From: an uncultured Verrucomicrobiae bacterium
GTDB taxonomy: Bacteria > Verrucomicrobiota > Verrucomicrobiia > Limisphaerales > UBA8199
Length of the DNA: 64,000 bases
NCBI GenBank assembly: GCA_963822005.1
Contig: CAWGGD010000044.1
Coordinates: 13,305-77,304 of the forward strand
Reading direction: 5' to 3'
Shown: piece by piece, positions 48,132-61,957 of the stretch
Numbering within the stretch: position 1 is the first letter of the stretch
Layout of the letters: every line of letters starts with the position of its first letter
The notes under the pieces: model-generated
What the model was told of the DNA's origin: nothing
What the model saw: the letters and a program-made list of their open reading frames with translations, nothing else
Databases searched by the model: none
Program-made: the position numbers and the translations under genes

Positions 48132-48368
48132 GTGCCGCGCAAACTGCGCATCCAATATCCCGGGGCGATTTATCATCCCCCTCCGCCATGGCTACGACGG
48201 GACTGGCGTCATGGATCGCGGGGACCAGCGCGAGGTAATCTTCAGGCACGAGGAGGATCGCCAGAGGCTTCTAACGCGTTGGCCCTGCGTTGCCAACCTG
48301 CGGAATGAGAACAACAATCCCAATCGGCTCAGGAGGTGCTGCCTTTGTGTAAGAAGTGAGGACACTTG
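48132..48368 (+). pseudogene. REP-associated tyrosine transposase (RAYT, IS200/IS605 Y1) N-terminal remnant, copy 1
   Basis: VPRKLRIQYPGAIYH-[insert]-VMDRGDQREVIFRHEEDRQRLL; no HUH motif follows. Confidence 0.75.
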
Positions 48369-48744: not shown

Positions 48745-51700
48745 CTATGGCGACACCACCCGGTAAAAGCGGTTGGGGCATCGGCCGGCGTTGGCGTCTT
48801 CGAAGGTAAACCTGCCATCGCCGTGGTCCACTGCCACACCAATCCTCTCCCAATCCGCGAGGTTGGTGGAGGCCTCGACGACATGGAGGCGGTACGCCGC
48901 GCCTGTGAAGGAGAATCGGCCTTTGGCGCCGGGCCGAGCGAGCAGCCGCACCCTGCCTGAGTGCCCCAGCCCAGAGCTTCCAAGGGCGCCAATCGCCTGT
49001 TGGGCGGCTTCGATGAACTGGCGGGCCAAGGCAGGGTCGGCGACCTGTGCCCGGACCTTGTTTTGGAACGCCTGCAATTGGTTGGTCGCGGAAACCGGAT
49101 TGCCCCGTTCAATGGACGCCTGTGCGGCCCGCAACGTCGCTGTCAACGGCTTCGGATTCCGCACCCCTGAGCCCTCCACCATCGCGATGAGCCACTGCAC
49201 AGCTTGGCCAGTGGTCACGACCGAGACGGTTACCGAATTGGTACTGGTGGCCACAGCGTCGCTCACGACCAAGTCAATTGGGTGGCTGCCGAGAGGCAGA
49301 ACCACCACCGCCACAACCCCGGTGGCCAGGAGCGTCGGAGCTTGAGAGCCGGGGGAGAAGAACCAGAAGTACTGCAAGGCGTCGCCCTCCGGGTCATAGG
49401 AGCGAGAGCCGTCGAGAATGGCCGTGCCATTGGCGCCGTTGGCAGACACGAACCAGGTGCCGGTCGCAGTGGCATCGGCCACGGGTACCAGATTCCACAG
49501 CGCGGTAGGACGGCTAGCAAAGGTCGTTCCCCAGCCGGTAGTCCCCCGCCGGTAATAGACAGTCGCATTGGTGTCCCCCTCGAAGACGTGCCAGCCAACG
49601 CTGGGGGCGTTTCCCTTGAAATAGACTCCCGTCAGGCTGGGGCATGATGCAAACGCACAGTCTCCGATGCTGGTGACGTTCGCGCCGATCGTGACGTTGG
49701 CCAGCCTCGTGCAGGAATAGAATACATACTCCCGGATGCTGCTGACGTGATTGCCTATCGCCGCGCTGGTTAGGCTGGAGCAGGAGGAGAACGCAGCAGG
49801 CCCGATACCGATGACGCTGTCGGGAATCGTAACGCTGGTCAGGTTCGTGCATTGAGAGAACGCATAGTACCCGATCCAGGTGACATTGGTCCCGATCGTG
49901 ACATTGGTCAGGCTCCTGCAAGAAGAGAACGCCCCGTCCCCGATGCTCGTAACACTGTTCGGGATCGTGACGCTGGTCAAGCTGGTGCAGGAGGAGAACA
50001 CATCGTACGCGATGTTAGTAACGCTGTTGGGGATAGTGACGCTGGTGAGGCTTGTGCAGGACGCGAAAGCCCCGCGCCCGATGTTAGTAACGCTCACGGG
50101 GATCGAAACGCTGGTCAGCTTGGTGCACGACGAGAACGCGTAGTCCCGTATGCTGGTGACGTTGGTCCCGACCGTGACATTGGTCAGGCTGGTGCAGGAA
50201 TCGAACGCCTCGTACCCGATGCTCGTGACGTTGTTGCCCATGGTCACGTCGGTTAGGCTCGCACAGTAACGGAACGCGTAGTCCGCGATGGTGGTGACAC
50301 TGCTGGGGATCGTGTAAGCTCCGGCGTTGCCCCCTGGGTATTGAATGAGCGTTATCCGGCCCTTGTCGAACAAGACTCCATCCACGCTGCTAAAGGAGGG
50401 ATTGAGCGCATCGACCGAAATTTGGGTCAGGCTGGTGCAGTAAGAGAACGCGCAATCCCCGATGCTGGTGACGCTGTCGGGGATTGTGACGCTAGTTAGG
50501 TTGGCGCAGCCATAGAACGCCCGATTCCCGATGCTCGTAACACTGTCGGGGATCGCGACGCTAGTCAGGCCAGTGTCAGCGAATGCCCAAGACTCGATGG
50601 TGATGACCGTGTTGGGGATTGTCACGTTGGTCAGGCTGGTGCAGGAATAGAACGCCCCGTCCCCGATGCTGGTGACGCTATCGGGGATCGCGACGCGAGT
50701 GAGGCTCGTGCAGGAATAAAAGGTGTTGACTCCGATGCTTGTGACGCCGTTACCGATTATGACGCTGGTTAGATTGGTGCAGTTCAAAAACGCTCCCTGC
50801 TCGATGCTCGTGACGCTGTCGGGGATCGTGACATTGGTCAGGCTGGTGCAGGAATTGAACGCCTCGTACCCGATGCTCGTGACGCTGTTGCCCATGGTCA
50901 CGTCGGTTAGGCTCGCACAGTAGCGGAACGCGTAGTCCGCGATGCTGGTGACACTGCTGGGGATCGTGTAGGCTCCAGCTCTGGCTCCGGGGTACTGAAT
51001 GAGCGTCGTCTGGCTCTTGTCGAACAAGACTCCACCCACGCTGCTAAAGGAGGGATTGAGCGCATCCACCGTGATTGTCGTCAGGCTGGCGCACGAAAAA
51101 AACGCCCAGCCCCCGATGTCGGTGACGCTGCTTGCCTATCGCCACGTTGGTCAGGCTGGTGCAGGAATAGAACGCATACCAGCCGATACTGGTGACACTG
51201 TCGGGAATCGTGAGGCTGGTCAGGCTCGTGCACCACTCGAACGCCCAGTCCCCGATGCTCGTGACGCTGTCGGGGATCGTGATGTTGGTCAGGCTCGTGC
51301 AGGAGTAGAAGCGAAGCGAACCCGATGCTGGTAACACCGTTGCCGATGGTGACGCTGGCCAGGCTGGTGCAGGAATAGAACGTCCAGTCCCCGATGCTGG
51401 TGACGCCGTTACCTGATCGTTGACGGTGGCTAGGTTGGTGCACGAAGAGAACGCATAGGACCCAACGCTGGATGACGCTGTCGGGGATGCTAACGCTCGT
51501 CGAGGCTTGTGCAGGAAGAGAAGGCATAGTCTCCGATGTTGGTGACGCCGTTGCCGATATTCACGCCTGCTGAGGCTGGTGCAAGAGGAGAAAGCATAGG
51601 ACCCGATGACGGGTGACGCTGTCGGGGATCGTGACGCTGGTGAGGCTCGCGCAGGACTCGAACGCAGAGTCCCCGATGCTGGTAACACTGTTGGGGATCG

Positions 51701-52878
51701 TGATGTTCGGTGAGACTGGCTGCAGGACTTGAACGCGGAGTCCCCAATACTGGTGACGCTGGCAGGGATTGTGATGCTGGCCAGGCTCGTGCAGGACTCG
51801 AATGCAGAATCCCCGATGCTGGTGACGCTGTTGGGAATCGTGACGCTCGTCAGGCTGGTGCAGATACCGAACGCCCAGTCTCCGATGCTGGTGACGCTGT
51901 CGCCGATCGTGACGTTGGTCAGGCTGGTGCAGCAATAGAACGCTCCGCTCCCGATGTTGGTGACGCTGTCGGGAATCGTGACGCTGGTCAGGCTGGTGCA
52001 GTGATCGAACGCCGAGTCGCCGATGTTGGTGACGCTGTCGTGCCGATCGTGACGCTGGTCAGGCTGGTGCAGCCCAGAGAACGCCCAGTCCCCGATGCTG
52101 GTGACGCTGTTGGGGATCGTGACGCTGGTCAGGCTGGCGCAGTCAGAGAACGCTCCGTCCCCGATGTTGGTGACGCTGTCGGGGATCGTGACGTTGGTCA
52201 GGCTGGTGCATTGCCCAGAACGCCCAGTCCCCGATGCTGGTGACGCTGTCGGGGATCGTGACGCTGGTCAGGCTGGCGCAGCCAATAGAACGCACAGCTT
52301 CCGATGTTGGTGACGCTGTTGGGGATTGCGTAGGCTTCCGGCTTTGCCTCCCGGGTATTGGATGAGCGTGGTCTGGCTCTTGTCGAACAAGACCCCATCC
52401 ACACTGCTATAGACGGAGTTGAGTGCATCCACGCGTGATCGCCGTCAGGCTGGTACAGGCAGAGAACGCCCCGTCCCCGATGCTGGTGACGCTGTCGGGA
52501 ATCGTGACGCTGGTCAGGCTGGTGCAGCAACCAGAACGCCTATGCCCCGATGCTGGTGACGCTGTTGCCGATCGTGACGTTGGTCAGGCTGGTGCAGGAA
52601 TAGAACGCCCCGCCCCCGATGCTGGTGACGCTGTCGGGAATCGTGACGCTGGTCAGGCTGGTGGCAGTAGCAGAACGCAGAGTCCCCGATACTGGTGACA
52701 GGCAGGCCATCGATCGTGCTGGGGATGGTCACCGCACCGCCGGGACCGGTGTATCCCGTGATGGTGATCGTGCCGTTCGTTGGTCCGTGTAATTGAATTG
52801 GGCTTGCACCGCGGCGGGCAGCGTCAAAAGCTGCGACGCCAGCGCAAGAACCGCACAGTGTGATCGGATTGATTTCAT
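48745..52878 (-). CDS. Large BspA-type (LRR_5) surface protein; 5' half heavily frameshifted
   Basis: Signal peptide MKSIRSH...[10 protein letters not shown]; 69-bp repeats IP.SVTSIG..AF..CT.LT.VT; PKD-like [12 protein letters not shown]; helical QLQAFQNKV domain; ends NRFYRVVSP. Confidence 0.88.
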
Positions 52879-53244
52879 AACGCTCCTTTTGGGGTAAGGC
52901 TCCCCTTTGAGGTTCAGGGTCTGCCCGCTGCCAACCCAGGACCCGTGCTCACCAACACCGCGATGTGCCAGCTTGTCCACGGATTAATCAGTACAATGCC
53001 TTTTGGCGAGCGCATCATCCAGCCTTACCGGTGCTGGTGCAATACGAAACACCCGCAAAAGCCTTCCGCAAAAGTACGGACAAGCAGAAAGGCGCGGCTA
53101 TGCTTCTCTGCCGGGGGATTGCAAGCCTGATTCTAAGCCCCGCCAGCCCTCAGGCAACAAAGGTGTTGCAGCCAAGAGAGGCGCAGCCGGTGAGGACTGC
53201 GCCCGAGGCAAGCCCCAGTCCTTCCAAATGACACTTATGGCGCC

Positions 53245-53401
53245 CATGAGTCGCGGGGACCAGCGCGAGGTAATCTTCAGGCACGAAGAGGATCGCCAGA
53301 GGCTTCTAACGCGTTGGCCCTGCGTTTCCAACCTGCGGAATGAGAAACAATCATTCCAAGCGGCTCAGGAGGTGCTGCTTTTGTGCCAATGGTGACACTT
53401 G
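53245..53401 (+). repeat. RAYT remnant copy 2; direct repeat of 48210-48368
   Basis: MSRGDQREVIFRHEEDRQRLLTRWPCV.NLRNE near-identical at DNA level. Confidence 0.85.
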
Positions 53402-53445
53402 ATCGCGCCCTGGGATCGCGCCCTCATTCGGCCATCTGCTACCGC

Positions 53446-55135
53446 CTATCCAATACGCGCGGGCAACTCCCCGGCCAGCTCCTCGATTTCCGCAGCCAGC
53501 CGCTCCGCCTCCTTCTCCAATTCGGCCCTCTCTTTTTCGAGCACCTTGGCCCGCTCCGCCGCCAGTTCGCCCAAGACACTCGGCTTCTTCTCGCTGATCT
53601 GCCAAAGCTCGTATTCGGGGCTTTCCCGCAACCGACCCAGCGACTCAATGACCTCGATAATCTCAAGCTGCAACGTCTCATACAACCGCCGCAATTGAGT
53701 GAGTTCCGCCTCCTCGCTGAAATCCAGGCTCCCCCATCCCTGCCGGCGGATGAACCCGTGCGGGTCCTCCGCGATCTCCCGCAGCGTCTCAATGTCGCCG
53801 CTGTCCTTCGCCCGGTTGATTGCGGCGGTCAGCTTCTCGTAAGTCTCAAGCTTCTCCGGCTCGTGGGCGAAACGGTCGGGATGATACAGCTTCACCAGCT
53901 TCTTCCAAAGCCTGGCTCAATTCGCGCTTCCTCGTCGGCGGTAAGCTGTTTCTTCTCGGCCACTGCCGCCGCCGTTTCCTCGTAATCCTTGTCGGTTTGC
54001 GCTTCTGGCCCGCTGGTAAGTTTCCTCGGCCTGTTTCGCCTCTTCGTCGCCGCCGCGTATCAGGGACTCCAGGTACTTCTTCCGGTAATCAACGACCAGC
54101 CGCAGTTGGTCGCGCCTCTGGTAATGCTCTCGCAAGTGCCGGAAAAGGATCGCTTGCACCGTATCCACCCGCGATTTCTCCCTCGTGTAGCGCGACCTCC
54201 AGCTCCGCCAGCCGCGCCCTGGCGCCCGCCACGAGCTGCCGCAGCTTCTCCAGCTCAGGACTCACGTAAATGACAACCGCCGCAAATGTGACCGCAGCCT
54301 CCCTCGGCTCCTTGCGTCCTAGTGGCTTCGTTGCTAAGCCCCGGTCACCCTCAGCCTCCGCCGCGGCAAATACCGCGCTGTCAACCTGCGCCTCTCCCTC
54401 GACTTCCAACTGTCGCAAGTACCACCGCCCCATCTTCGCGCTGCGTGCGTTGGAAGATCTTGCCAGCCAATCCAGCCAGCGCCGCAACTCCGCATCCCTG
54501 CGCGCCTCATGAACCAGCCGCCCCTTGTGTTTCCCAAACGCAATCCGCGACGGATACCACTCCTCCGAGGTGTAAGCCACCACCTTCTCCCACGTATCCA
54601 ACCCCCGGTGCTCCGCAATTGGCCGCAGCACCCTGCCAAACAAATCCACGACGGTTTGCACAGCCCCCAGTGCCGTGTGTGCGCCGTGTTCAGGGAGCTG
54701 GTAATACTGCCGCAAGGTTTGCAGCTTGCAGTTGCCCGCCGGCACCGGATCGAGAAGGCGCTGGGCCAACCGCAGGGCGCACAAGCCGCGCGTGCCGAGG
54801 GGAGCGACTCGCAGCCTTTCCCACTCCGGCGCCAGCACTTCGTCCAGATCATACGCCAAATTGAACGAAACGAGCGGCAACTTGCCCGCGTACTCGCCAA
54901 ACTCCCGATACACTTGCAGCGGCGGCTCACCGTCCCGCTCCAGAATCTCGCGGGTGTAGCCATGCACGTGCGACGCCTCAGCCGGAATCTCTTGGTTTTG
55001 GTTGAGCAGCTTGCGGAATGGCTCCCCGCCCGGCTCCCACCCGCGCATCCGCTGCGCCGCCAATTCGACAACGAAGATTGGCGCGGCCAAACCCGTCGTT
55101 TCGGTGTCGAGTATAATCCAAGGTGTCTCTTTCAT
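53446..55135 (-). CDS. DEDDh (DnaQ-like) exonuclease fused to coiled coil and J-domain; apparent frameshifts ~54190, ~54000, ~53915
   Basis: ILDTETTG, FNLAYD, AHTALG; FGKHKG motif; W.KLVKLYHPDRF J-domain. Confidence 0.8.
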
Positions 55136-55137
55136 GC

Positions 55138-56613
55138 TTAGAAATGCTGATCAGGGCGCTGTAGTAGGCGCGTGGTCTCGGCGTCGTAAGTCAACTCTTT
55201 CAACTCCGTCAGTGGCCGGATGTCCAGAACGCTTATGGGATTGGATGAGCAGTCCAAATCTTCCAAACAGGTTGTCTTGCTCAGGTCCAGCTCGGCGATC
55301 TCGTTCCGGCCACACTCCAGTCCCGTAAGATTCGGCACACGCGACAAATCTAGGTTAGTGAGGAAGTTATCCTCACAGCATAACCGCTCCAGCCGAGGAA
55401 CCGCCCTCAGGTTCAGCTCCCGGATTTCGTTCTGCTTGCACCTAAGGTGGGTCAACTTCGGAACACTTGACAGGTCCAAGTTCGACAACCCGTTGCACTC
55501 ACATTCAAGAGTCTCCAGCTCAGGAAGGAGGCCAAGGCATAATTCCCGGATTTCGTTCTCGTAGCACGAAAGGTGGACTAGCCTTGGGACCCCTGAGAGA
55601 TCTAGCCCTGACAAGCGGTTCTCGGAGCAGTTCAAGTCTTCTAAACGGGCTATTCTGCTCAGGTCCAACTCGGTGATCTCGTTCCGCCCACAGTCCAGCT
55701 CCCTAAGACTCGGCACATGCGACAAATCCAAGCTGGTGAGGAGGTTATCCTTACAGCAGACCTCCTCCAGCCGAGGATGTCCCCTCAGGTCTAGTGCGGA
55801 GATTGCATTCCGGTCGCAGTGAAGGGCTCGTAGTTTCGGGACGCCTGACAGGTCCAAGTTCGACAACGCGTTCCCGTCGCAATGAAGCTCAATTAGATTC
55901 GGAACGCGCGGCAGATCCAAACTCGAGACTTGATTGCACGAACACCAAAGTGCGCCCAGGTTGGGAACAACCGATAAGTCCAACTTGGACAACCGATTGC
56001 CTACGCAGTGCAGGGCTTTGAGGCGAGGCACCTTGCTCAAATCCAATTCTTGGATTCGGCTATGCTCGTACCTAAGCCACGCCAAATTCGGAACCCCCGA
56101 GAGGTCACAAACATCCGCGATAGCAGGCAAGCGCCCAAAGTCGAGCAGAGAGAGTTTGGGCAAGCGCAGATTACGTATCCGAATACGCGAATGCTTGCCC
56201 GACCCAGCAATTTGAAAGCACAGGTGTGTTGTCTCCAAAGCTTCGACCAGTTCAAACTCCCACAGCGGCAGCAGACCAAAGTCCCAATTGATCTTGCGCA
56301 ACCTTCCGTCCTCAAAGCGCGTCTCCCTCCAAGCCTCCCTGATCCGACTCCCACCCTTCAGTAGACGTTCTATCACTTCCTCCGGCCTCAGGCTGAGCGC
56401 CTTCGCCCAAGCCAGAATCTGCCGGTAGTCAGGTTCGCACCATTCGTACTGTCCAATTGCGAACTTCGCAGCAACCAGTGTGGACTGCCGCTGCTTCGCC
56501 AGCGCGAGCGTGTCGGCCACGATAGCGGACTGAATGCGCCTCGCGCCAGCCCCGGCCGTTTCGACCGCACTCGGCGGCCTTCGCACTAGCGCAAAGTTGT
56601 TGTTCTTCTTCAT
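55138..56613 (-). CDS. Cytoplasmic leucine-rich repeat protein (paralog A)
   Basis: 21-aa repeats LDLS.VP.L..L.C..N.I/L; no signal peptide. Confidence 0.88.
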   Translation of the reverse strand: MKKNNNFALVRRPPSAVETAGAGARRIQSAIVADTLALAKQRQSTLVAAKFAIGQYEWCEPDYRQILAWAKALSLRPEEVIERLLKGGSRIREAWRETRFEDGRLRKINWDFGLLPLWEFELVEALETTHLCFQIAGSGKHSRIRIRNLRLPKLSLLDFGRLPAIADVCDLSGVPNLAWLRYEHSRIQELDLSKVPRLKALHCVGNRLSKLDLSVVPNLGALWCSCNQVSSLDLPRVPNLIELHCDGNALSNLDLSGVPKLRALHCDRNAISALDLRGHPRLEEVCCKDNLLTSLDLSHVPSLRELDCGRNEITELDLSRIARLEDLNCSENRLSGLDLSGVPRLVHLSCYENEIRELCLGLLPELETLECECNGLSNLDLSSVPKLTHLRCKQNEIRELNLRAVPRLERLCCEDNFLTNLDLSRVPNLTGLECGRNEIAELDLSKTTCLEDLDCSSNPISVLDIRPLTELKELTYDAETTRLLQRPDQHF

Positions 56614-56644
56614 TGCGCTAACAGCACCCGCTGATTAACTCGCT

Positions 56645-57298
56645 TCAGACTTTCCGTTTGGCCCACGGCGGTCCCCAGGTGATCTCGTTTGGATGTCCCC
56701 AGGCATCCTCCCAGCCTAACTTTCCCTCAACAAGTTGGATTATCCTGTCCGCATCTAATCTGTCAACGTGCAGAAAGGGTTGCTTGTGCCCACTTGCCTC
56801 CAAGTGCCCCAACATTTTCTTAGACCGGCTGTCTCTAGTAAAGAAGCTGAAGCCCCAGTCTATGACTGTGAATCCCTTCCTGGCGTCATAAAACACGTTC
56901 CAAGGGCGAAGATCACCGTGGACCAATCCAACCTGCTCAAGCGAGCCCACAAACGAGTCCAAAGCGCTCCGAATGGCTTCAGGATCCGGCAGACCATCAT
57001 CAATGTGCCACAACAGCGTCCCGGGAGCGCGCTCCACAATGAAAACCCTCTCCTCAATAATGTCCACAATCTTCGCAACCCCGCGTAATCTGTCTTGAAT
57101 GCGCTGTATTCGCAAGAAGTGCTGAGCGTCTTCGTGAGAAGGTAGGCAGACAAAGCCAACCTGCCCGTACTTCTTGGCGGTGAGAACTTTGGCTAGATGG
57201 GTACTGCCACGATAGCTTGCCCTGATTTCCGCCTCGCATTTGTACCCGTGGAAGGCTAAATAGCATTCGTCGTACAGTAGGTCTCTCATGATTATCAT
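56645..57298 (-). CDS. Minimal protein-kinase-like protein
   Basis: HGDLRPWN catalytic loop; VIDWGFS metal-binding loop; IVERAPG hinge. Confidence 0.75.
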   Translation of the reverse strand: MIIMRDLLYDECYLAFHGYKCEAEIRASYRGSTHLAKVLTAKKYGQVGFVCLPSHEDAQHFLRIQRIQDRLRGVAKIVDIIEERVFIVERAPGTLLWHIDDGLPDPEAIRSALDSFVGSLEQVGLVHGDLRPWNVFYDARKGFTVIDWGFSFFTRDSRSKKMLGHLEASGHKQPFLHVDRLDADRIIQLVEGKLGWEDAWGHPNEITWGPPWAKRKV

Positions 57299-57305
57299 TG
57301 TCAGT

Positions 57306-58595
57306 TCACTGACTCCCTCCGAAGTGCTGGTCGGGCCGCTGGACGAGACGCGCCTGGCCAGTGTCATAGTGAAGTTTCCTCAAATGTTGGAGAGGCCGGA
57401 TATCCAGAACGCTGATGAAGTTCCCAGAGCAATTCAAGTCTTGCAGGCGAGGCACGCCGGTCAGGTCCAGTTCAGCGATCGCGTTCCGTTGGCACGCCAG
57501 CTCCGTCAGGTTGGGGACGCCCGACACGCGCAGCCTGGATAATCTGTTGTCAGAACAATCCAGATAAGCCAAGCGCGGTAGTCTACTAAGGTCCAGATCC
57601 AACAACTCGTTGTGCCAGCACACAAGTGAGACCAGGTTTGGCACGACCGACAAGTCCAACTTCGCTAGCCTGTTGGACAAGCACTGCAAGTGCTCCAAAC
57701 CGGAAGCCTTGCTCAGGTCGAGCCGCGCAAGGTTGTTACAGGAGCAATCGAGGTCCATTAGTTTGGGAGCGCCTGCCAGATCCAGACTCGACAAGCTGTT
57801 GCCTCTGCAGTCCAGTTTTTGCAGGCGCGCTGAGGTGCCCAATTGCAACTTCTCGAGTTTGTTGTCGAGGCAACAGACCGTTTGTACGTTGGGAGCACCT
57901 GACAAGTCCAGTTCACGAATTTGATTGCCATCGCAAGCCAAGGATTCCAAATAGTTAAGTCCTGATAGATTCAAGTGGGATATTCCGTTGCTTGAGCAAT
58001 AAAGGATTCGCAGTTGGCGGAGCTCCGCCAAGTCGAGCTCCGTCAAGCTGTTGGATGAACAATCCAGATAAACCAGATTCGGAGCGCGGGACAGGTCAAG
58101 GCGAGCTGAGCACAGCCTATGACAGTCCAAATGCGTGAGCACGGGCAGGGCAGGACCGAGCGCCGGAATGTTCCCAGACCTCTCAAAATCGGTGTAGAAA
58201 GATAGGTGCGTTGTTCTTAAACCATCGACCCATTCGAGGTTTTCCAGAGGCAGCAAGGGAAAATCCCAATTGATCCCCACCAAACGGCCCCCAGAGAACC
58301 GTGTCTCTTTCCAAGGGTCTCCTGTGAGTCGGTTGCCAGTCCGGAGACGATCTATGACTACCTCCGGCTTCAATTTCAGCGCCTTTGCCCAAATCAAAAT
58401 CTGCCTGTAATCCGGCTCGCACCATTCGTACTCGCCGATTTGGAACTTTGCCGCAGCGGGCATCGTCTGCGTCTTGTCCGCCAGCACGAGGGCATCCGCC
58501 ACAATGCCGGAGAGAATACGCTTCGCGCCCGGGTCCACCTTTTCAAGGGCACTTGGCGGCCTTCGCACCAGCGCGACATTGTCTTCTTCAGTCAC
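57306..58595 (-). CDS. Cytoplasmic leucine-rich repeat protein (paralog B)
   Basis: GTG start VTEEDNVALVRRPPSA aligns with paralog A start; 21-aa LRRs; shared C-terminus VLDIRPL...QRPDQHF. Confidence 0.88.
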   Translation of the reverse strand: MTEEDNVALVRRPPSALEKVDPGAKRILSGIVADALVLADKTQTMPAAAKFQIGEYEWCEPDYRQILIWAKALKLKPEVVIDRLRTGNRLTGDPWKETRFSGGRLVGINWDFPLLPLENLEWVDGLRTTHLSFYTDFERSGNIPALGPALPVLTHLDCHRLCSARLDLSRAPNLVYLDCSSNSLTELDLAELRQLRILYCSSNGISHLNLSGLNYLESLACDGNQIRELDLSGAPNVQTVCCLDNKLEKLQLGTSARLQKLDCRGNSLSSLDLAGAPKLMDLDCSCNNLARLDLSKASGLEHLQCLSNRLAKLDLSVVPNLVSLVCWHNELLDLDLSRLPRLAYLDCSDNRLSRLRVSGVPNLTELACQRNAIAELDLTGVPRLQDLNCSGNFISVLDIRPLQHLRKLHYDTGQARLVQRPDQHFGGSQ

Positions 58596-59010
58596 GGGCG
58601 GCTGCCTGTTTCGGATCGGTTGGGCGGGTGAAAAGTCTCTGACAAAGGGCCTCCTTAAAGTCCTGCAGGGGCACGCGGGAGTCAGCCTGAACACAAGGGT
58701 TGTCGCGCACATGCACGAACTCATTCACCGCATCAGAATTCAAAAGGGCGCCGATGTCCTTCAGGGGGTTGAGGTTCTCTTCAATGGTTTGGAACCCCCA
58801 TCCCGGCTGCCCTGGCCATTTATCGATCACGACCTTGGCCAGGTCCACCGCAAGCTCGGCAGCGGTCATTTGAGCCACCGCATCCTTTCCTGCGTATCGG
58901 TTCCGCGCTATTATGTCATCGATCTCCATTCGCAAAGGCATGCCCGTGAGCATCTTCGAGGTTGCTTCCATTCTAGCCCTGATCCTGGAAGCGACAGTAT
59001 CAACATTCAT
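58588..59010 (-). CDS. Hypothetical protein
   Basis: 140-aa ORF whose stop overlaps the LRR-B start. Confidence 0.55.
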   Translation of the reverse strand: MNVDTVASRIRARMEATSKMLTGMPLRMEIDDIIARNRYAGKDAVAQMTAAELAVDLAKVVIDKWPGQPGWGFQTIEENLNPLKDIGALLNSDAVNEFVHVRDNPCVQADSRVPLQDFKEALCQRLFTRPTDPKQAAARD

Positions 59011-59349
59011 AAATGCGGATTCTTTTCCGTTTCGCGATCTCAGCGTGAGTTTAATCCCGTCTCGCGAAGACCGTAAGCAGAAAAACACCCCGCCGAAGCC
59101 AGAGGGTTTCGGGACCTGCCGGAGTCACCTCCCCCTGACGCGAGCAAGGTCTCTTTCGACTTCGTCCACGCGACTTTGTGTCCTTGCCTTGGGACCAATC
59201 CGACAGCACGCTGCCGCCCCTCGGCAGTCTGCTCAAGGGGTATTCCCCGCCGCGCCGCTTCACCAGAACACACCGGCGAGAAACATCAGAAGAAACATCG
59301 TTTCTACAGCCTCTCCCTGGGCGGCGCCCGGGGCCGCAAGCCACTCCCT

Positions 59350-60066
59350 CTAATTCCGTAGAGTTGACCAGCGAACTTGCTTTTCCCGGTCTGTGAGGTG
59401 CTTTGCAGTTAGGCTGCGAACCTTCCGGAAGTAGTAGTCCGGTGCCGCTGGATGAACGTAAATGCGGTGAATCAAGCGCCGGAGGTTCACAGGAAGGCGG
59501 ATTCTTTTTATCGTGCATTTGTCAGCCTGAAACTGCTCTTCAGGCCGGCAAATGCATAACCGAAGCTCTCGTTCGTCGCTGTAACAGGGAAGCTTTTGAA
59601 ACAGCAGGTAGCCAATTTTATTCGGCATGTAAGGGGTCTGCTCGTACCGGACAGATGCCGGATAAACCTCTGCTGCGAGCGGCCCACTTTCAGGGAGCGC
59701 CAGTAACAGATTCTGGAATGTTGTTCTTATGGCGACGCCCTCTGAATCACCACAAAACCTTCTCCACATGTGGTCAGCTTCAAAGTCAGCGACGCTGAAG
59801 CACGTCACCCAGGACCGTTGTCGTATGCTTTCGTGGAAGGCCCGGAGCGCGACAAGCATTTCTGGGTTGTCCTTATACATTCCTTGCATCGCAGCCAATT
59901 GGGAATCGTTCATTCTGGCTTCCGCCTGGTCAGGGAAGCTCGAGACTTGGCAGAGATACAACTCGCCTGATTGAAGAATATCCTCAAAGTAAGGAGCTTT
60001 GTAGTATTTCCAGACCGTTGCCGGCGGAGGCGGAACCGGAAAATGGTAGCGCTCTTCCTCCAACAT
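59350..60066 (-). CDS. DUF2971-related protein
   Basis: VWKYY, F.DQAE, VTCFS....DHMWRRF, GVAIRT, V.Y, K...YSDERELR. Confidence 0.7.
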   Translation of the reverse strand: MLEEERYHFPVPPPPATVWKYYKAPYFEDILQSGELYLCQVSSFPDQAEARMNDSQLAAMQGMYKDNPEMLVALRAFHESIRQRSWVTCFSVADFEADHMWRRFCGDSEGVAIRTTFQNLLLALPESGPLAAEVYPASVRYEQTPYMPNKIGYLLFQKLPCYSDERELRLCICRPEEQFQADKCTIKRIRLPVNLRRLIHRIYVHPAAPDYYFRKVRSLTAKHLTDREKQVRWSTLRN

Positions 60067-60634
60067 CTTTGCCCGCTCTTCTGGTGAGGCCCGGCCTTCC
60101 GCCTTTGCCGCATCCTCGCTGGCGATCCAAAGAATTCCTGACGTTGGTCGGTTGTTCACCACTTCAGACCCATCGTGCTCCCCCGCCGCAGACGCAAGGC
60201 GATTATTACAGGCGCATGTTATGGGCCTGCAAAGGGAGCGCCTCCTCACTGGACTTGGATTGCAGGAATGGCTCGGACCCGTTCAAGCCCGTTCCGCCTC
60301 GACCCCGACGGGCTTGGCCTCGGCCCCGCCGGACTCGAGGTGCCCCTGCTAAAGGGAATGGTCGGCACAGGCAGCAAATTCCCTTCCTCGCTCTCTTGTT
60401 TTCTAGCGGGCTCTTGGTGGTTCATGGTGACCGCATTCTAGAGCAAGTGTCACTATTGAGACTCTTGGCGCAAAGTGAACGGCAAGCAATGGCATGGCTT
60501 ATGCCACCTATTTGGCTCGGCGCCGGGGCAGGTTCTTGGAGTTCGCGGCCTTGCAACAGAGGCCGGGGCGCTATCGCATACATTCAGCCGTGAGCGACTT
60601 CCAACTTCAAGCTGGGGACCTGCGGATCAACCCA

Positions 60635-61957
60635 TCACGGCGCGCGCACGGCCAGCCGGTAGAACGCGCCGCTCACAGCCGTGGAAACCGCTACGGTTGA
60701 CACATTCACCGGTGAGGTCGCAAGAATCGCTGCCTGCACGACCTGGGTAAAACCATCCTCGGGTCTGGCAGTCTGCCGCACCTCGTAGGTTCGGCCGGAC
60801 ACGCTTCGCCAGCTCAGCACCAGGGCGCTTCTGTCAGCGGTTGGGACGGCGCTGAGGAGCCGAAACACCGAGGACGCATCGGTCGGGTCCGTTCCGGCGG
60901 TCTGCTCCTGGGCGTTGGTCATCCCGTCCAGATCCGAATCGGCCGAGCCGGTCGTGTGCGTGGTGGTGCCCCAATAGCGGAGTTCCCAGTCGTCGGAAAG
61001 CGCATCGCCATCCGTGTCCTCCGCCGGCAGAAACTGGCGGAACCAGAGGATGGCCTCGCCATTCAGGTTGTTGTCGTCGGTCATGAAACACCAGTGGTTC
61101 GTGCCGGTGGTGGGCGCGAGCGCGAACCCTTCGAGGTTGCCCGACCGCGGCCCGACATACTCGATCAGCGGCCGCAGACGCCGCTCGGAGCCCTCGAGGT
61201 AGGAGTTGAGCTCCGTGATCTCCAGGTAGTTGGCGCCGAGGTTGTGCCAGATGTAAAGCTTGCCCGTGGAGCGGTCGAACTCCAGCCCGGAGGTCTCCGC
61301 TCTACCGGTCTTGTACCGGCCCACATACGCGAACGTGTTGTTGGTGCGGTTGAGATCAAACACGTGAACGTAGCCCCCGTCCTGGTGGCCAACAAACATC
61401 AGCCCACCCATCCCATTGCTGCTCACATACGGCAGGCCATTGGTTGCCTGGAACCCCTCCCGCCGAAGCCACTCGTCGGGCACGAACGTCAGCGCCTCCG
61501 GGCCGGTTGTCCCGCCGACTTCCGGGCACTGGACGCGGATGTCCCAGTTCCGGTTCTCCTGGATCACGCCATATTGCGAGACGTTGTACTCGCGAATCCA
61601 CCCGTTCTCGTCCATCAGGTAAACCAGGGGCTGATTGAAGTCCGCCTGGCAAATGCTTTCCAGGTCCCCGCCGGGAGACCACTTGGCCTTGGTGCCGGCG
61701 GCATTGGTCGCCACCCGGAAACTACCGGCCCCGTCCTCGACCAGGGCCCAGAAATGGCCGCTGTTGTTGGCGAGCCAGAGCGTGCGCGTCACCGGGTTCC
61801 ACGCCGCGCCGCTCATGTTGATCGTGTTGAAGTCCGGATCCAGGGTTGTCAGCTTCACCGCCTGGCTGGTCGGCTCCGCGGGCCAGGGACTGGCGGCGTT
61901 CAGCGCGTTCGCCAGCGCGACCGCCGCCCACACCGCCACAAAGACACGTTGGCCCAT
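60635..61957 (-). CDS. Secreted beta-propeller (SdiA-regulated-like) protein with D-rich Ca-binding repeats and FYR C-terminus
   Basis: Signal peptide; SG..W, DLESI, GPEAL, NLEG blades; DTDGDALSDDWE; ends GAFYRLAVRAP. Confidence 0.75.
   Translation of the reverse strand: MGQRVFVAVWAAVALANALNAASPWPAEPTSQAVKLTTLDPDFNTINMSGAAWNPVTRTLWLANNSGHFWALVEDGAGSFRVATNAAGTKAKWSPGGDLESICQADFNQPLVYLMDENGWIREYNVSQYGVIQENRNWDIRVQCPEVGGTTGPEALTFVPDEWLRREGFQATNGLPYVSSNGMGGLMFVGHQDGGYVHVFDLNRTNNTFAYVGRYKTGRAETSGLEFDRSTGKLYIWHNLGANYLEITELNSYLEGSERRLRPLIEYVGPRSGNLEGFALAPTTGTNHWCFMTDDNNLNGEAILWFRQFLPAEDTDGDALSDDWELRYWGTTTHTTGSADSDLDGMTNAQEQTAGTDPTDASSVFRLLSAVPTADRSALVLSWRSVSGRTYEVRQTARPEDGFTQVVQAAILATSPVNVSTVAVSTAVSGAFYRLAVRAP

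Follow-up and report, generated by a model that had tools for sequence, protein, structure and literature searches.

Does the cluster of six co-oriented genes found at positions 53446-60249 of a Verrucomicrobiae genome fragment act as one system and, if so, which of its parts are the constant ones? The cluster lies on the minus strand of a stretch of 64,000 nucleotides (contig CAWGGD010000044.1 of assembly GCA_963822005.1), hereafter called the window. Its open reading frames (ORFs) encode a DUF2971-like protein, an orphan product, two leucine-rich repeat (LRR) proteins on either side of a small kinase-like protein, and an exonuclease combined with a J-domain (exo-J). A reading of this DNA from its letters alone (the sequence-only reading) had proposed an undescribed immune-like cluster in which the LRR proteins recognize a ligand, the kinase relays the signal and the nuclease recruits DnaK. 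The six genes are present as described, and none of the libraries that we searched names the module, whose genes recur together in other genomes. The constant parts are a leader peptide of about 40 residues and a J-domain scaffold. The module is recurrent, mainly in Verrucomicrobiota, and the window holds a decaying copy of it. We view it as modular and probably conflict-related: leader-tagged proteins would be handed to DnaK by a J-domain scaffold dedicated to them, a reading to which we give a probability of about 0.55.

A common leader precedes a J-domain scaffold

When the window proteins were searched by tblastn, LRR-like matches were found just upstream of exo-J homologues and, in several loci, these matches covered the first ~40 residues only. 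Pfam assigned LRR, Sel1 or receiver (REC) domains to the genes upstream of the exo-J homologues, all of them behind a common N-terminus. The alignment of 14 of these sequences (A1) gave the consensus MNExxxFALVRRPxSALEKAxPGAKRILSGMVADTLALA for this leader, for which Pfam has no family. In the window, alignment and a hidden Markov model (HMM) of the leader locate it at the N-terminus of both LRR proteins, LRR-A (56482..56613, minus strand, starting with MKKNNNFALVRRPPSAVETAGAGARRIQSAIVADTLALA) and LRR-B (58464..58595, minus strand, starting with VALVRRPPSALEKVDPGAKRILSGIVADALVLA). Over the 7.96-Mb assembly, the HMM matched only these two proteins (3.7e-22 for LRR-A and 3.8e-20 for LRR-B), the next match having an E value of 0.68.

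The leader family comprises at least 599 proteins at E ≤ 0.01 (profile search over 8,000 candidates). The domains borne behind the leader, hereafter called heads, were counted by hand over the best 120 of these 599 proteins: 60 carry a REC domain (11 of them with Sel1 and one with EIIA as well), 20 carry Sel1 only, nine LRR, one Hsp70 and one Toprim_Crpt, and 29 have no Pfam domain. The conserved partner is therefore not the LRR, as had been proposed, but the leader, which is found with any head (REC, Sel1, LRR or others). In one pair of tandem leaders from a locus of the same genus as the window (L042), 32 of 38 residues are identical, for 16 of 38 identical third codon positions. Since the leader is conserved at the protein level while third positions of tandem leaders are only 42-55% identical, selection acts on the leader peptide; gene conversion between tandem leaders was considered and rejected on the same figures. 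Two contigs of one assembly (G045:C253, locus L034, and G045:C2, locus L035) both break inside leader genes, as if tandem leader-bearing genes disturbed assembly.

The fetched loci were scanned in six frames, and a locus was considered informative if it included the 5' end of the gene itself and 900 nt or more of upstream sequence. Five loci (L006-L010) encode distant exonucleases without the J part and are not members, and L044 was fetched through the kinase and not through exo-J. Sixteen of the 20 informative loci beside the window carry one to three same-strand leaders located 550-3215 nt upstream of the exo-J gene or of a gene encoding the J part only (J-only). In the window, the two leader genes start 1478 and 3460 nt before exo-J, which brings the co-occurrence of leader and J-scaffold on the same strand to 17 of 21 loci. 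The sequence-only reading had staked its proposal on a linkage of exonuclease-J homologues with LRR or other repeat genes, and this linkage, to repeat or receiver genes, is what the 16 loci display. No leader was found in eight 5'-truncated exo-J copies. On a viral contig (L074:3631-6575), an exo-J relative (43% identity) is preceded by an LRR gene whose diverged leader is visible by eye and escaped the HMM; therefore, some of the missing leaders may be due to divergence.

Among 201 genomes sampled from the order, 10 contain the leader and 24 the J part, many of the J-part matches being fragments or containing stops; nine of the 10 leader-bearing genomes also have the J part. Copies of the module show 62-89% identity between metagenome-assembled genomes (MAGs) of different taxonomic labels and between different families of the order. 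Their flanks vary from locus to locus and include SMODS, a Toprim/DUF3631 primase (L028) and a PIN gene.

The scaffold itself is a well-populated family. Intact exo-J homologues are single ORFs of 552-565 residues with the complete D-E-D-D plus His set of the DEDDh exonucleases (motif III being H-x4-D). The window exonuclease has at least 1,481 relatives at E ≤ 0.001 (8,000 candidates scored); nearly all of the best 120 have 548-571 residues and 70-84% identity, and they align to no more than the first ~90% of the window ORF. The N-terminal part of the family profile matches PDB entries 8h18 (DnaQ, 7.9e-14), 8fyc (1.5e-12) and 8fy9 (Cas2-DEDDh, 6.4e-12). The nuclease is not a required part, as the earlier scheme supposed: J-only versions of 272-279 residues (L020, L029 and L030) all retain leader genes. 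An exhaustive search started from a J-only relative found 727 clusters at 50% identity with E ≤ 0.001, 132 of them at E ≤ 1e-30.

Single scaffold sequences score 16-21 bits against the DnaJ family (PF00226), under its cut-off of 27.8 bits, and the window J ORF alone gives no match; 52 of 68 diverse family members match PF00226 at E ≤ 0.01 (best 7.4e-07), and the family profile matches the J-domain structures of Escherichia coli DnaJ at 3.7e-5. Among 32 diverse sequences, the HPD motif has an invariant H135 and P136 and a D137 conserved to at least 90%. The HPD motif reported earlier was indeed found in the window (KLYHPDR, HPD at 53875-53883), within a J-domain segment (helix II, HPD, helix III) at 53740..53925 on the minus strand. 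An AlphaFold2 model of a J-only protein, with a predicted local distance difference test (pLDDT) of 83.8, consists of very long helices around helix 117-133, the HPD motif and helix 143-162, and Foldseek found no significant neighbour for it in the PDB, the hits being generic long-helix proteins (best E = 0.1). These profile matches and the conserved motif support the identity of the embedded J-domain. It would be expected to stimulate the ATPase of host DnaK, and recruitment of DnaK by the J-domain, proposed from the outset, remains the most reasonable inference. Outside the J-domain, residues F49, L52, R59, D60, Y102 and L227 of the scaffold are nearly invariant. Some scaffolds (P0241, P0246 and P0278) have extra parts, either C-terminal membrane segments or an N-terminal extension of 230 residues before the exonuclease (771 residues in total); a DUF6804 match among family members is linked to the C-terminal membrane segments.

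The leader is predicted to contact the scaffold

The J-only scaffold of L030 (32-row alignment) was co-folded with its own leader (54 residues, 20 rows) in three runs, together with three controls. The interaction prediction score from aligned errors (ipSAE) was 0.74, 0.73 and 0.74, against 0.00 for the best of the three controls; among solved complexes, 58 of 80 attain the benchmark mark for this score, as do 2 of 110 mismatched pairs, a guide that is only rough with the custom alignments used here. At least 66% of contacts are shared between the runs, and the partner has a pLDDT of at least 57. The predicted interface joins leader residues 23-51, an amphipathic helix, to scaffold residues 44-60, 101-108 and 223-248; it is located outside the J-domain and overlaps the nearly invariant residues listed above. 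The co-fold thus supports a contact between leader and scaffold. The first ~22 residues of the leader, including the FALVRR segment, are outside the confident interface. This segment has a hydrophobic core with a basic flank, which we take to resemble a DnaK binding motif.

The window carries a broken copy of the scaffold gene

The sequence-only reading treated the exonuclease and the J-domain as one fused ORF. In the window, this gene (53446..55135, minus strand) is split in three ORFs (54089-55135, 53917-54168 and 53446-53895) by four single-base insertions, located near 54192, 54002, 53925 and 53915 according to a nucleotide alignment with three intact homologues (L011, L015 and L003). Tblastn and three-frame translation show that the window follows the homologue P0002 in one frame up to residue 315, then in a second frame, a stop being crossed just before ARLWKKLVKLYHPD. 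The exonuclease part is still recognizable, with a match to RNase_T (PF00929) at 38.2 bits for a cut-off of 24 bits, a match to the Cas-associated DEDDh model of PADLOC at 1.8e-20 and a partial match to PADLOC PDC-S48 (residues 1-230 to positions 1-225 of a 411-position model, 42 bits).

Furthermore, the catalytic set of the window copy is incomplete. The Asp of motif III is replaced by Ala (HTALGA; D158A), whereas 111 of 113 homologues keep it; D158 is the Asp of H-x4-D, motif III in the usual numbering. Of 150 columns conserved to 97% or more in the 113 homologues, five are altered in the window copy (R56H, E94A, D158A, L185V and N292S); the homologues themselves deviate at 1.6 of these columns on average and at six at most. 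The four insertions may be a local assembly fault. Nevertheless, all four lie within ~280 nt, none is found in the adjacent 3.4 kb (LRR-A, kinase and LRR-B) and a catalytic Asp is substituted, which together argue for genuine decay of the gene rather than for uniform assembly error. Since its J-scaffold gene would be inactivated, the module is probably not functional in the window, and the intact LRR and kinase genes, left without their central gene, are probably remnants.

The same genus offers a second example: L042 (genome G001) encodes a SIR2-like protein, three leader proteins (two with REC and one with no Pfam domain) and an exo-J gene that is fragmented as well. Therefore, decay of the module seems to be under way in each of the two genomes of this genus. 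Many module copies elsewhere are also fragments or contain stops. In genomes such as G173 (nine matches), G048, G053 and G038, many short C-terminal fragments of the scaffold, some with stops, are scattered on several contigs of the same genome, which suggests repeated duplication and decay of this gene.

Enzyme genes before the leaders and a lineage-specific kinase

In nine loci, an enzyme gene lies in tight tandem before the first leader gene, with gaps of -28 to 44 nt. This gene is SIR2-like in L011, L020, L027 and L042 (PF13289; PADLOC SIR2/Aga_SIR2), DUF2971-like in L015, HNH in L016, Ymh/HEPN in L030, Trypsin_2-like in L044 and weakly HEPN-like in L018; the cited part of PMC3710099 places Ymh among the HEPN families. 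The first gene of the window cluster (59350..60249, minus strand, with a likely ATG start at 60066) had been called DUF2971-like. This label holds by PADLOC PDC-S31 (E = 9.4e-11 over residues 78-202) and by ESM Atlas (0.97, with 27 of 30 matches in DUF2971-bearing clusters); it does not hold by Pfam, whose DUF2971 model (PF11185) gives no match at E ≤ 0.01. DUF2971 is predicted to be a DarT-like ADP-ribosyltransferase in the passages cited here (PMC12522546, PMC11381338) and, alone, constitutes the single-gene antiphage system Aristaios according to the latter. In L015, a relative of the window gene (24% identical) stands directly before the leaders. Since it overlaps the first leader gene by 4 nt, it appears integrated into the module rather than autonomous. 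In the window, the DUF2971-like gene is separated from the first leader gene by the orphan ORF, and it is either an occupant of this effector slot or a separate single-gene unit.

The kinase-like gene (56645..57298, minus strand, ORF to 57367) encodes a small protein of ~217 residues from M24, of the APH/RIO/Bud32 type and devoid of leader. It scores 28.4 bits with APH (PF01636, cut-off 23.2) and 24.8 bits with RIO1 (PF01163, cut-off 22), and has only 13 relatives among 5.8 billion proteins. The HGD motif noted earlier belongs to a catalytic loop (VHGDLRPWN in the window) in which HGDLRPWN, with H150, D152 and N157, is invariant in 13 sequences; D170 and W171 of the DWG motif are invariant too, and G172 is at least 90% conserved. 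No invariant N-lobe Lys or Glu was found in the N-terminal 90 columns of the alignment (A6). The kinase is absent from all 42 loci fetched by exo-J or leader queries (L002-L043). Among the 30 loci of a metagenome scan made with the kinase, L044 alone repeats the window arrangement, in the order Trypsin_2-like gene, leader-LRR, kinase (84% identical), leader-Sel1 and exo-J, with gaps of 19 and 21 nt around the kinase. Relatives 30-49% identical stand alone in unrelated contexts. Since only L044 repeats the arrangement and these relatives stand alone, the kinase is a lineage-specific accessory and not the core relay that had been imagined. Distant kinase relatives (31-34%) are found alone beside Abi_2, ResIII/HsdR-type helicase or IS1595 transposase genes in L049, L051, L055 and L068.

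Layout and surroundings of the cluster in the window

Gene starts in the window were revised from the N-termini of homologues. LRR-A (55138..56613) and LRR-B (57306..58595, ORF to 58724), both on the minus strand, are paralogues with 45% identity and match LRR_4 (PF12799) at 7.7e-31 (105.9 bits) and 8.8e-23 (80.3 bits), respectively, for a cut-off of 27; the likely GTG start of LRR-B at 58595 was also read directly. With these starts, the tight spacing announced for the last five genes is confirmed: the orphan ORF shares 8 nt with LRR-B, and the next intervals are 7 nt (LRR-B/kinase), 31 nt (kinase/LRR-A) and 2 nt (LRR-A/exonuclease). The orphan ORF (58588..59088, minus strand) encodes 166 residues, or 140 from an internal ATG at 59010. 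It has no match in Pfam, PADLOC or NCBIfam, low recognition and no usable match in ESM Atlas, and no tblastn match in 72 other loci, and may not be a real gene. The DUF2971-like gene is 261 nt away from it. A weak terminator-like hairpin with a 5-bp stem (59088..59104, minus strand) lies between this gene and the remaining cluster; it constitutes weak evidence, three such sites being seen in the region for 9.1 expected from shuffled sequences.

The GC dip that had been reported is also found, with 0.51-0.58 across 55000-60000 versus 0.60-0.66 in the flanks, the exception being the exonuclease-J stretch (0.60-0.63), which is not low like the rest of the cluster. Tblastn with all eight products found no paralogue of the cluster elsewhere in the assembly, and no Rfam RNA family was found in 52500-61000.

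A direct repeat of ~140-175 nt (96% and 88% identity) is present at 48210-48349 and 53245-53385, 5035 nt apart. Its two copies bracket BspA-type LRR genes, and it comes to within 60 nt of the stop of exo-J. The sequence-only reading had placed remnants of RAYT and toxin-antitoxin genes next to the cluster. Neither is borne out by Pfam, which gives no match; what is present is a repeated ORF fragment (...DRGDQREVIFRHEEDRQRLL...) that we presume to be RAYT-like. One of the bracketed genes (48745-51069, LRR_5) is intact, with a repeat spacing of exactly 69 nt. Its neighbour (51044-52732) is split into at least six ORFs, with repeat spacings of 70, 72, 139, 140 and 142 nt, and appears to be a decayed paralogue.

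A working model and its rivals

The core of the module would be a long helical scaffold with an embedded J-domain, usually preceded by an N-terminal DEDDh 3'-5' exonuclease that some versions lack. The genes immediately upstream, one to three in number, would supply clients consisting of the ~40-residue leader and an interchangeable head, the window having two LRR heads. The amphipathic helix of the leader (GAKRILSGMVADTLALA) would dock in a groove of the conserved non-J helices of the scaffold; the J-domain, through its HPD motif, would then stimulate host DnaK, which would engage the docked protein and plausibly do so at FALVRR, an exposed segment that is hydrophobic and basic. Heads would give specificity through ligand or partner binding, and the output would come from the exonuclease and/or from the variable upstream enzyme (SIR2-like, DUF2971/ADP-ribosyltransferase-like, HNH, HEPN or trypsin-like). 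We favour a conflict or anti-phage role because of the patchy distribution of the module, its frequent decay, its swappable parts, its defence-type neighbours and the enzymes of the upstream slot.

A chaperone-gated immune system would be a possible form of this mechanism, which we put forward as a tentative idea that may well prove wrong. The J-scaffold and host DnaK would hold or remodel polymorphic leader-tagged sensors (LRR, Sel1, REC or an Hsp70 substrate-binding domain). Either the draining of DnaK by infection or the binding of a ligand by the head would change their state and unleash the exonuclease or an adjacent NAD-consuming, ADP-ribosylating, HEPN, HNH or protease effector. The leader would then be a portable "chaperone-addiction" tag made of a scaffold-docking helix and a DnaK-binding FALVRR segment.

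Several points weigh against a conflict-related J-scaffold system. The HMM detected no leader in four of the 20 informative loci (L017, L031, L032 and L038), and in several loci (L012, L036 and L037) the neighbours are housekeeping genes (hisD, tsaD, an arginine decarboxylase/speA-like gene and selA) with no recognizable effector. Only one clear relative was found on 2.9 million IMG/VR viral contigs (L074), and 50,697 phage and 72,556 plasmid records contain no full-length relative, the matches being distant, restricted to the exonuclease domain and of at most 43% coverage. PADLOC models match the exonuclease part only (DEDDh and PDC-S48) and neither the J-only nor the leader proteins; in PADLOC-DB v2, a leader-REC protein is matched through its receiver domain only, and a leader-Sel1 protein and both window LRR proteins match no family. 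The defence role is argued from neighbourhood and analogy, and the commonest head, a receiver domain, fits signalling at least as well as immunity. The co-fold value is a model confidence and not a measurement, the binding of FALVRR by DnaK is inferred from the DnaK motif rule, and the AlphaFold2 model of full-length exo-J is poor (pLDDT 54.5 with a 24-row alignment, below 50 in the exonuclease domain), so it was left out of the fold search.

The main rival is a role in signalling or proteostasis, in which the J-adaptor would deliver leader-tagged signalling proteins to DnaK and thereby tune a stress or developmental response. Most heads would then be receivers served by histidine kinases encoded elsewhere, and the SIR2, HNH and DUF2971 genes would be unrelated island neighbours. 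Control of regulators such as sigma-32 by DnaK/DnaJ is established; the frequency of REC heads (half of the best 120 leader proteins), the loci set amid housekeeping genes without an effector-like gene and the lack of PADLOC models for scaffold and leader proteins all agree with such a role. We nevertheless consider it rather unlikely, given that the leader is found in only 10 of 201 genomes of the order, that decay and fragmentation are frequent, that heads are hypervariable within one locus, that enzyme genes recur tightly before the first leader gene in nine loci, and that an optional nuclease domain fits pure regulation poorly. The same patchiness, together with 62-89% identity across MAGs of different labels and families, would suit the cargo or maintenance functions of a mobile element, the DnaQ-like exonuclease and the recruitment of DnaK then helping an integrative element to replicate or become established, in the way that DnaJ/DnaK are used by lambda P and plasmid RepA. 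The Toprim/DUF3631 primase adjoining the module in L028, the recombinase-like ORFs adjoining it in L074 (a label given by eye from the translation only) and the GC content of the window segment, below that of its flanks, point the same way. However, integrase, replication and transfer genes are not seen in most loci, the phage and plasmid records yield no full-length match and the variable leader-tagged heads are left unexplained, which makes this explanation improbable. Repressor-like ORFs, also recognized by eye only, adjoin exo-J on the L074 contig.

The linear cascade of the sequence-only reading, with LRRs sensing a ligand, the kinase relaying by phosphorylation and exonuclease-J executing, draws on the position of the kinase between two leader genes, at 7 and 31 nt, and on the repetition of this order in L044. 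It is more improbable still: the kinase is missing from 42 loci, its 30-49% relatives live alone in unrelated contexts, its alignment has no invariant N-lobe lysine, the LRR is one head among several and the nuclease is absent from the J-only versions. Least probable of all is that these genes are independent neighbours in a variable island and form no functional module. This is already disfavoured for the core by the presence of leader and J-scaffold on the same strand in 17 of 21 loci, by the absence of the leader from the rest of the window's genome and by the contact that the co-fold supports. The DUF2971-like gene stands apart in this respect, as it is set off by 261 nt and a weak terminator-like site, and DUF2971 alone forms the antiphage system Aristaios in the cited part of PMC11381338.

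Likeness to known systems and significance

The conflict-related J-scaffold system that we favour shares traits with several known ones. Class III J-domain proteins, such as HscB with IscU, combine a J-domain with a dedicated client-binding domain. Like HscB, the scaffold has an HPD-bearing J-domain and a helical domain that would pass a client to Hsp70. Unlike the single client of HscB, its client signal would be a portable leader of 40 residues found on hundreds of proteins with different heads; its genes are operon-linked, patchy and often decayed, and the scaffold is a long helical bundle without significant PDB neighbour, often fused to a DEDDh exonuclease. In toxin-antitoxin-chaperone systems, the antitoxin has a "chaperone addiction" extension to which a SecB-like chaperone binds. 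Here also, a short appended peptide would make its bearer dependent on a co-encoded chaperone component, near a putatively toxic enzyme. However, the module has no SecB homologue, its tag is N-terminal, and its co-chaperone would borrow host DnaK. Among solved structures, the N-terminal domain is best matched by DnaQ-like and Cas2-DEDDh exonucleases (8h18, 8fy9 and 8fyc). Unlike Cas2-DEDDh, this domain has no CRISPR context and is fused to a coiled-coil/J scaffold, the window copy lacking in addition the Asp of motif III.

Links between the Hsp70 machinery and phage sensing have been described: the antiphage protein bNACHT25 needs host DnaJ for phage sensing, as stated in the cited part of PMC12169576. 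As far as that part goes, the likeness is in tying Hsp70/J-protein machinery to phage sensing and the difference in the actors, a housekeeping DnaJ and a NACHT NTPase on one side, a dedicated, co-encoded J-protein and no NTPase on the other. As for Aristaios, the first window gene resembles it by its matches to PDC-S31 and to DUF2971 clusters, and departs from it by the silence of the Pfam DUF2971 model and by the L015 relative that overlaps a leader gene. The nucleoside triphosphate-dependent conflict systems of Kaur et al. 2020, with their effector-associated domains, include one GTPase system in which a DnaJ fusion occurs, together with Hsp70 and GrpE (cited passages of PMC7159879). The module has in common with them, as presented in these passages, an adaptor element that stays constant, effectors that vary and "sensor" domains made of repeats. 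It differs by the lack of a STAND, MoxR, vWA or GTPase core, and its leader and scaffold are absent from the same passages. We found no description of the exonuclease-J-domain fusion or of the leader in the literature, supplementary neighbourhood tables such as those of PMC7159879 not being covered, and a full-text search returned no paper in which "DEDDh" and "J-domain" occur together. Hence, the module is apparently undescribed.

If this reading is true, one portable tag of 40 residues and one J-adaptor would put many binding and signalling proteins under Hsp70. This would add to the connection recently made between DnaJ and the sensing of phages, and would provide a compact, testable pair of peptide and scaffold. 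It would also represent a new organizing principle for accessory, probably immune, systems of prokaryotes.

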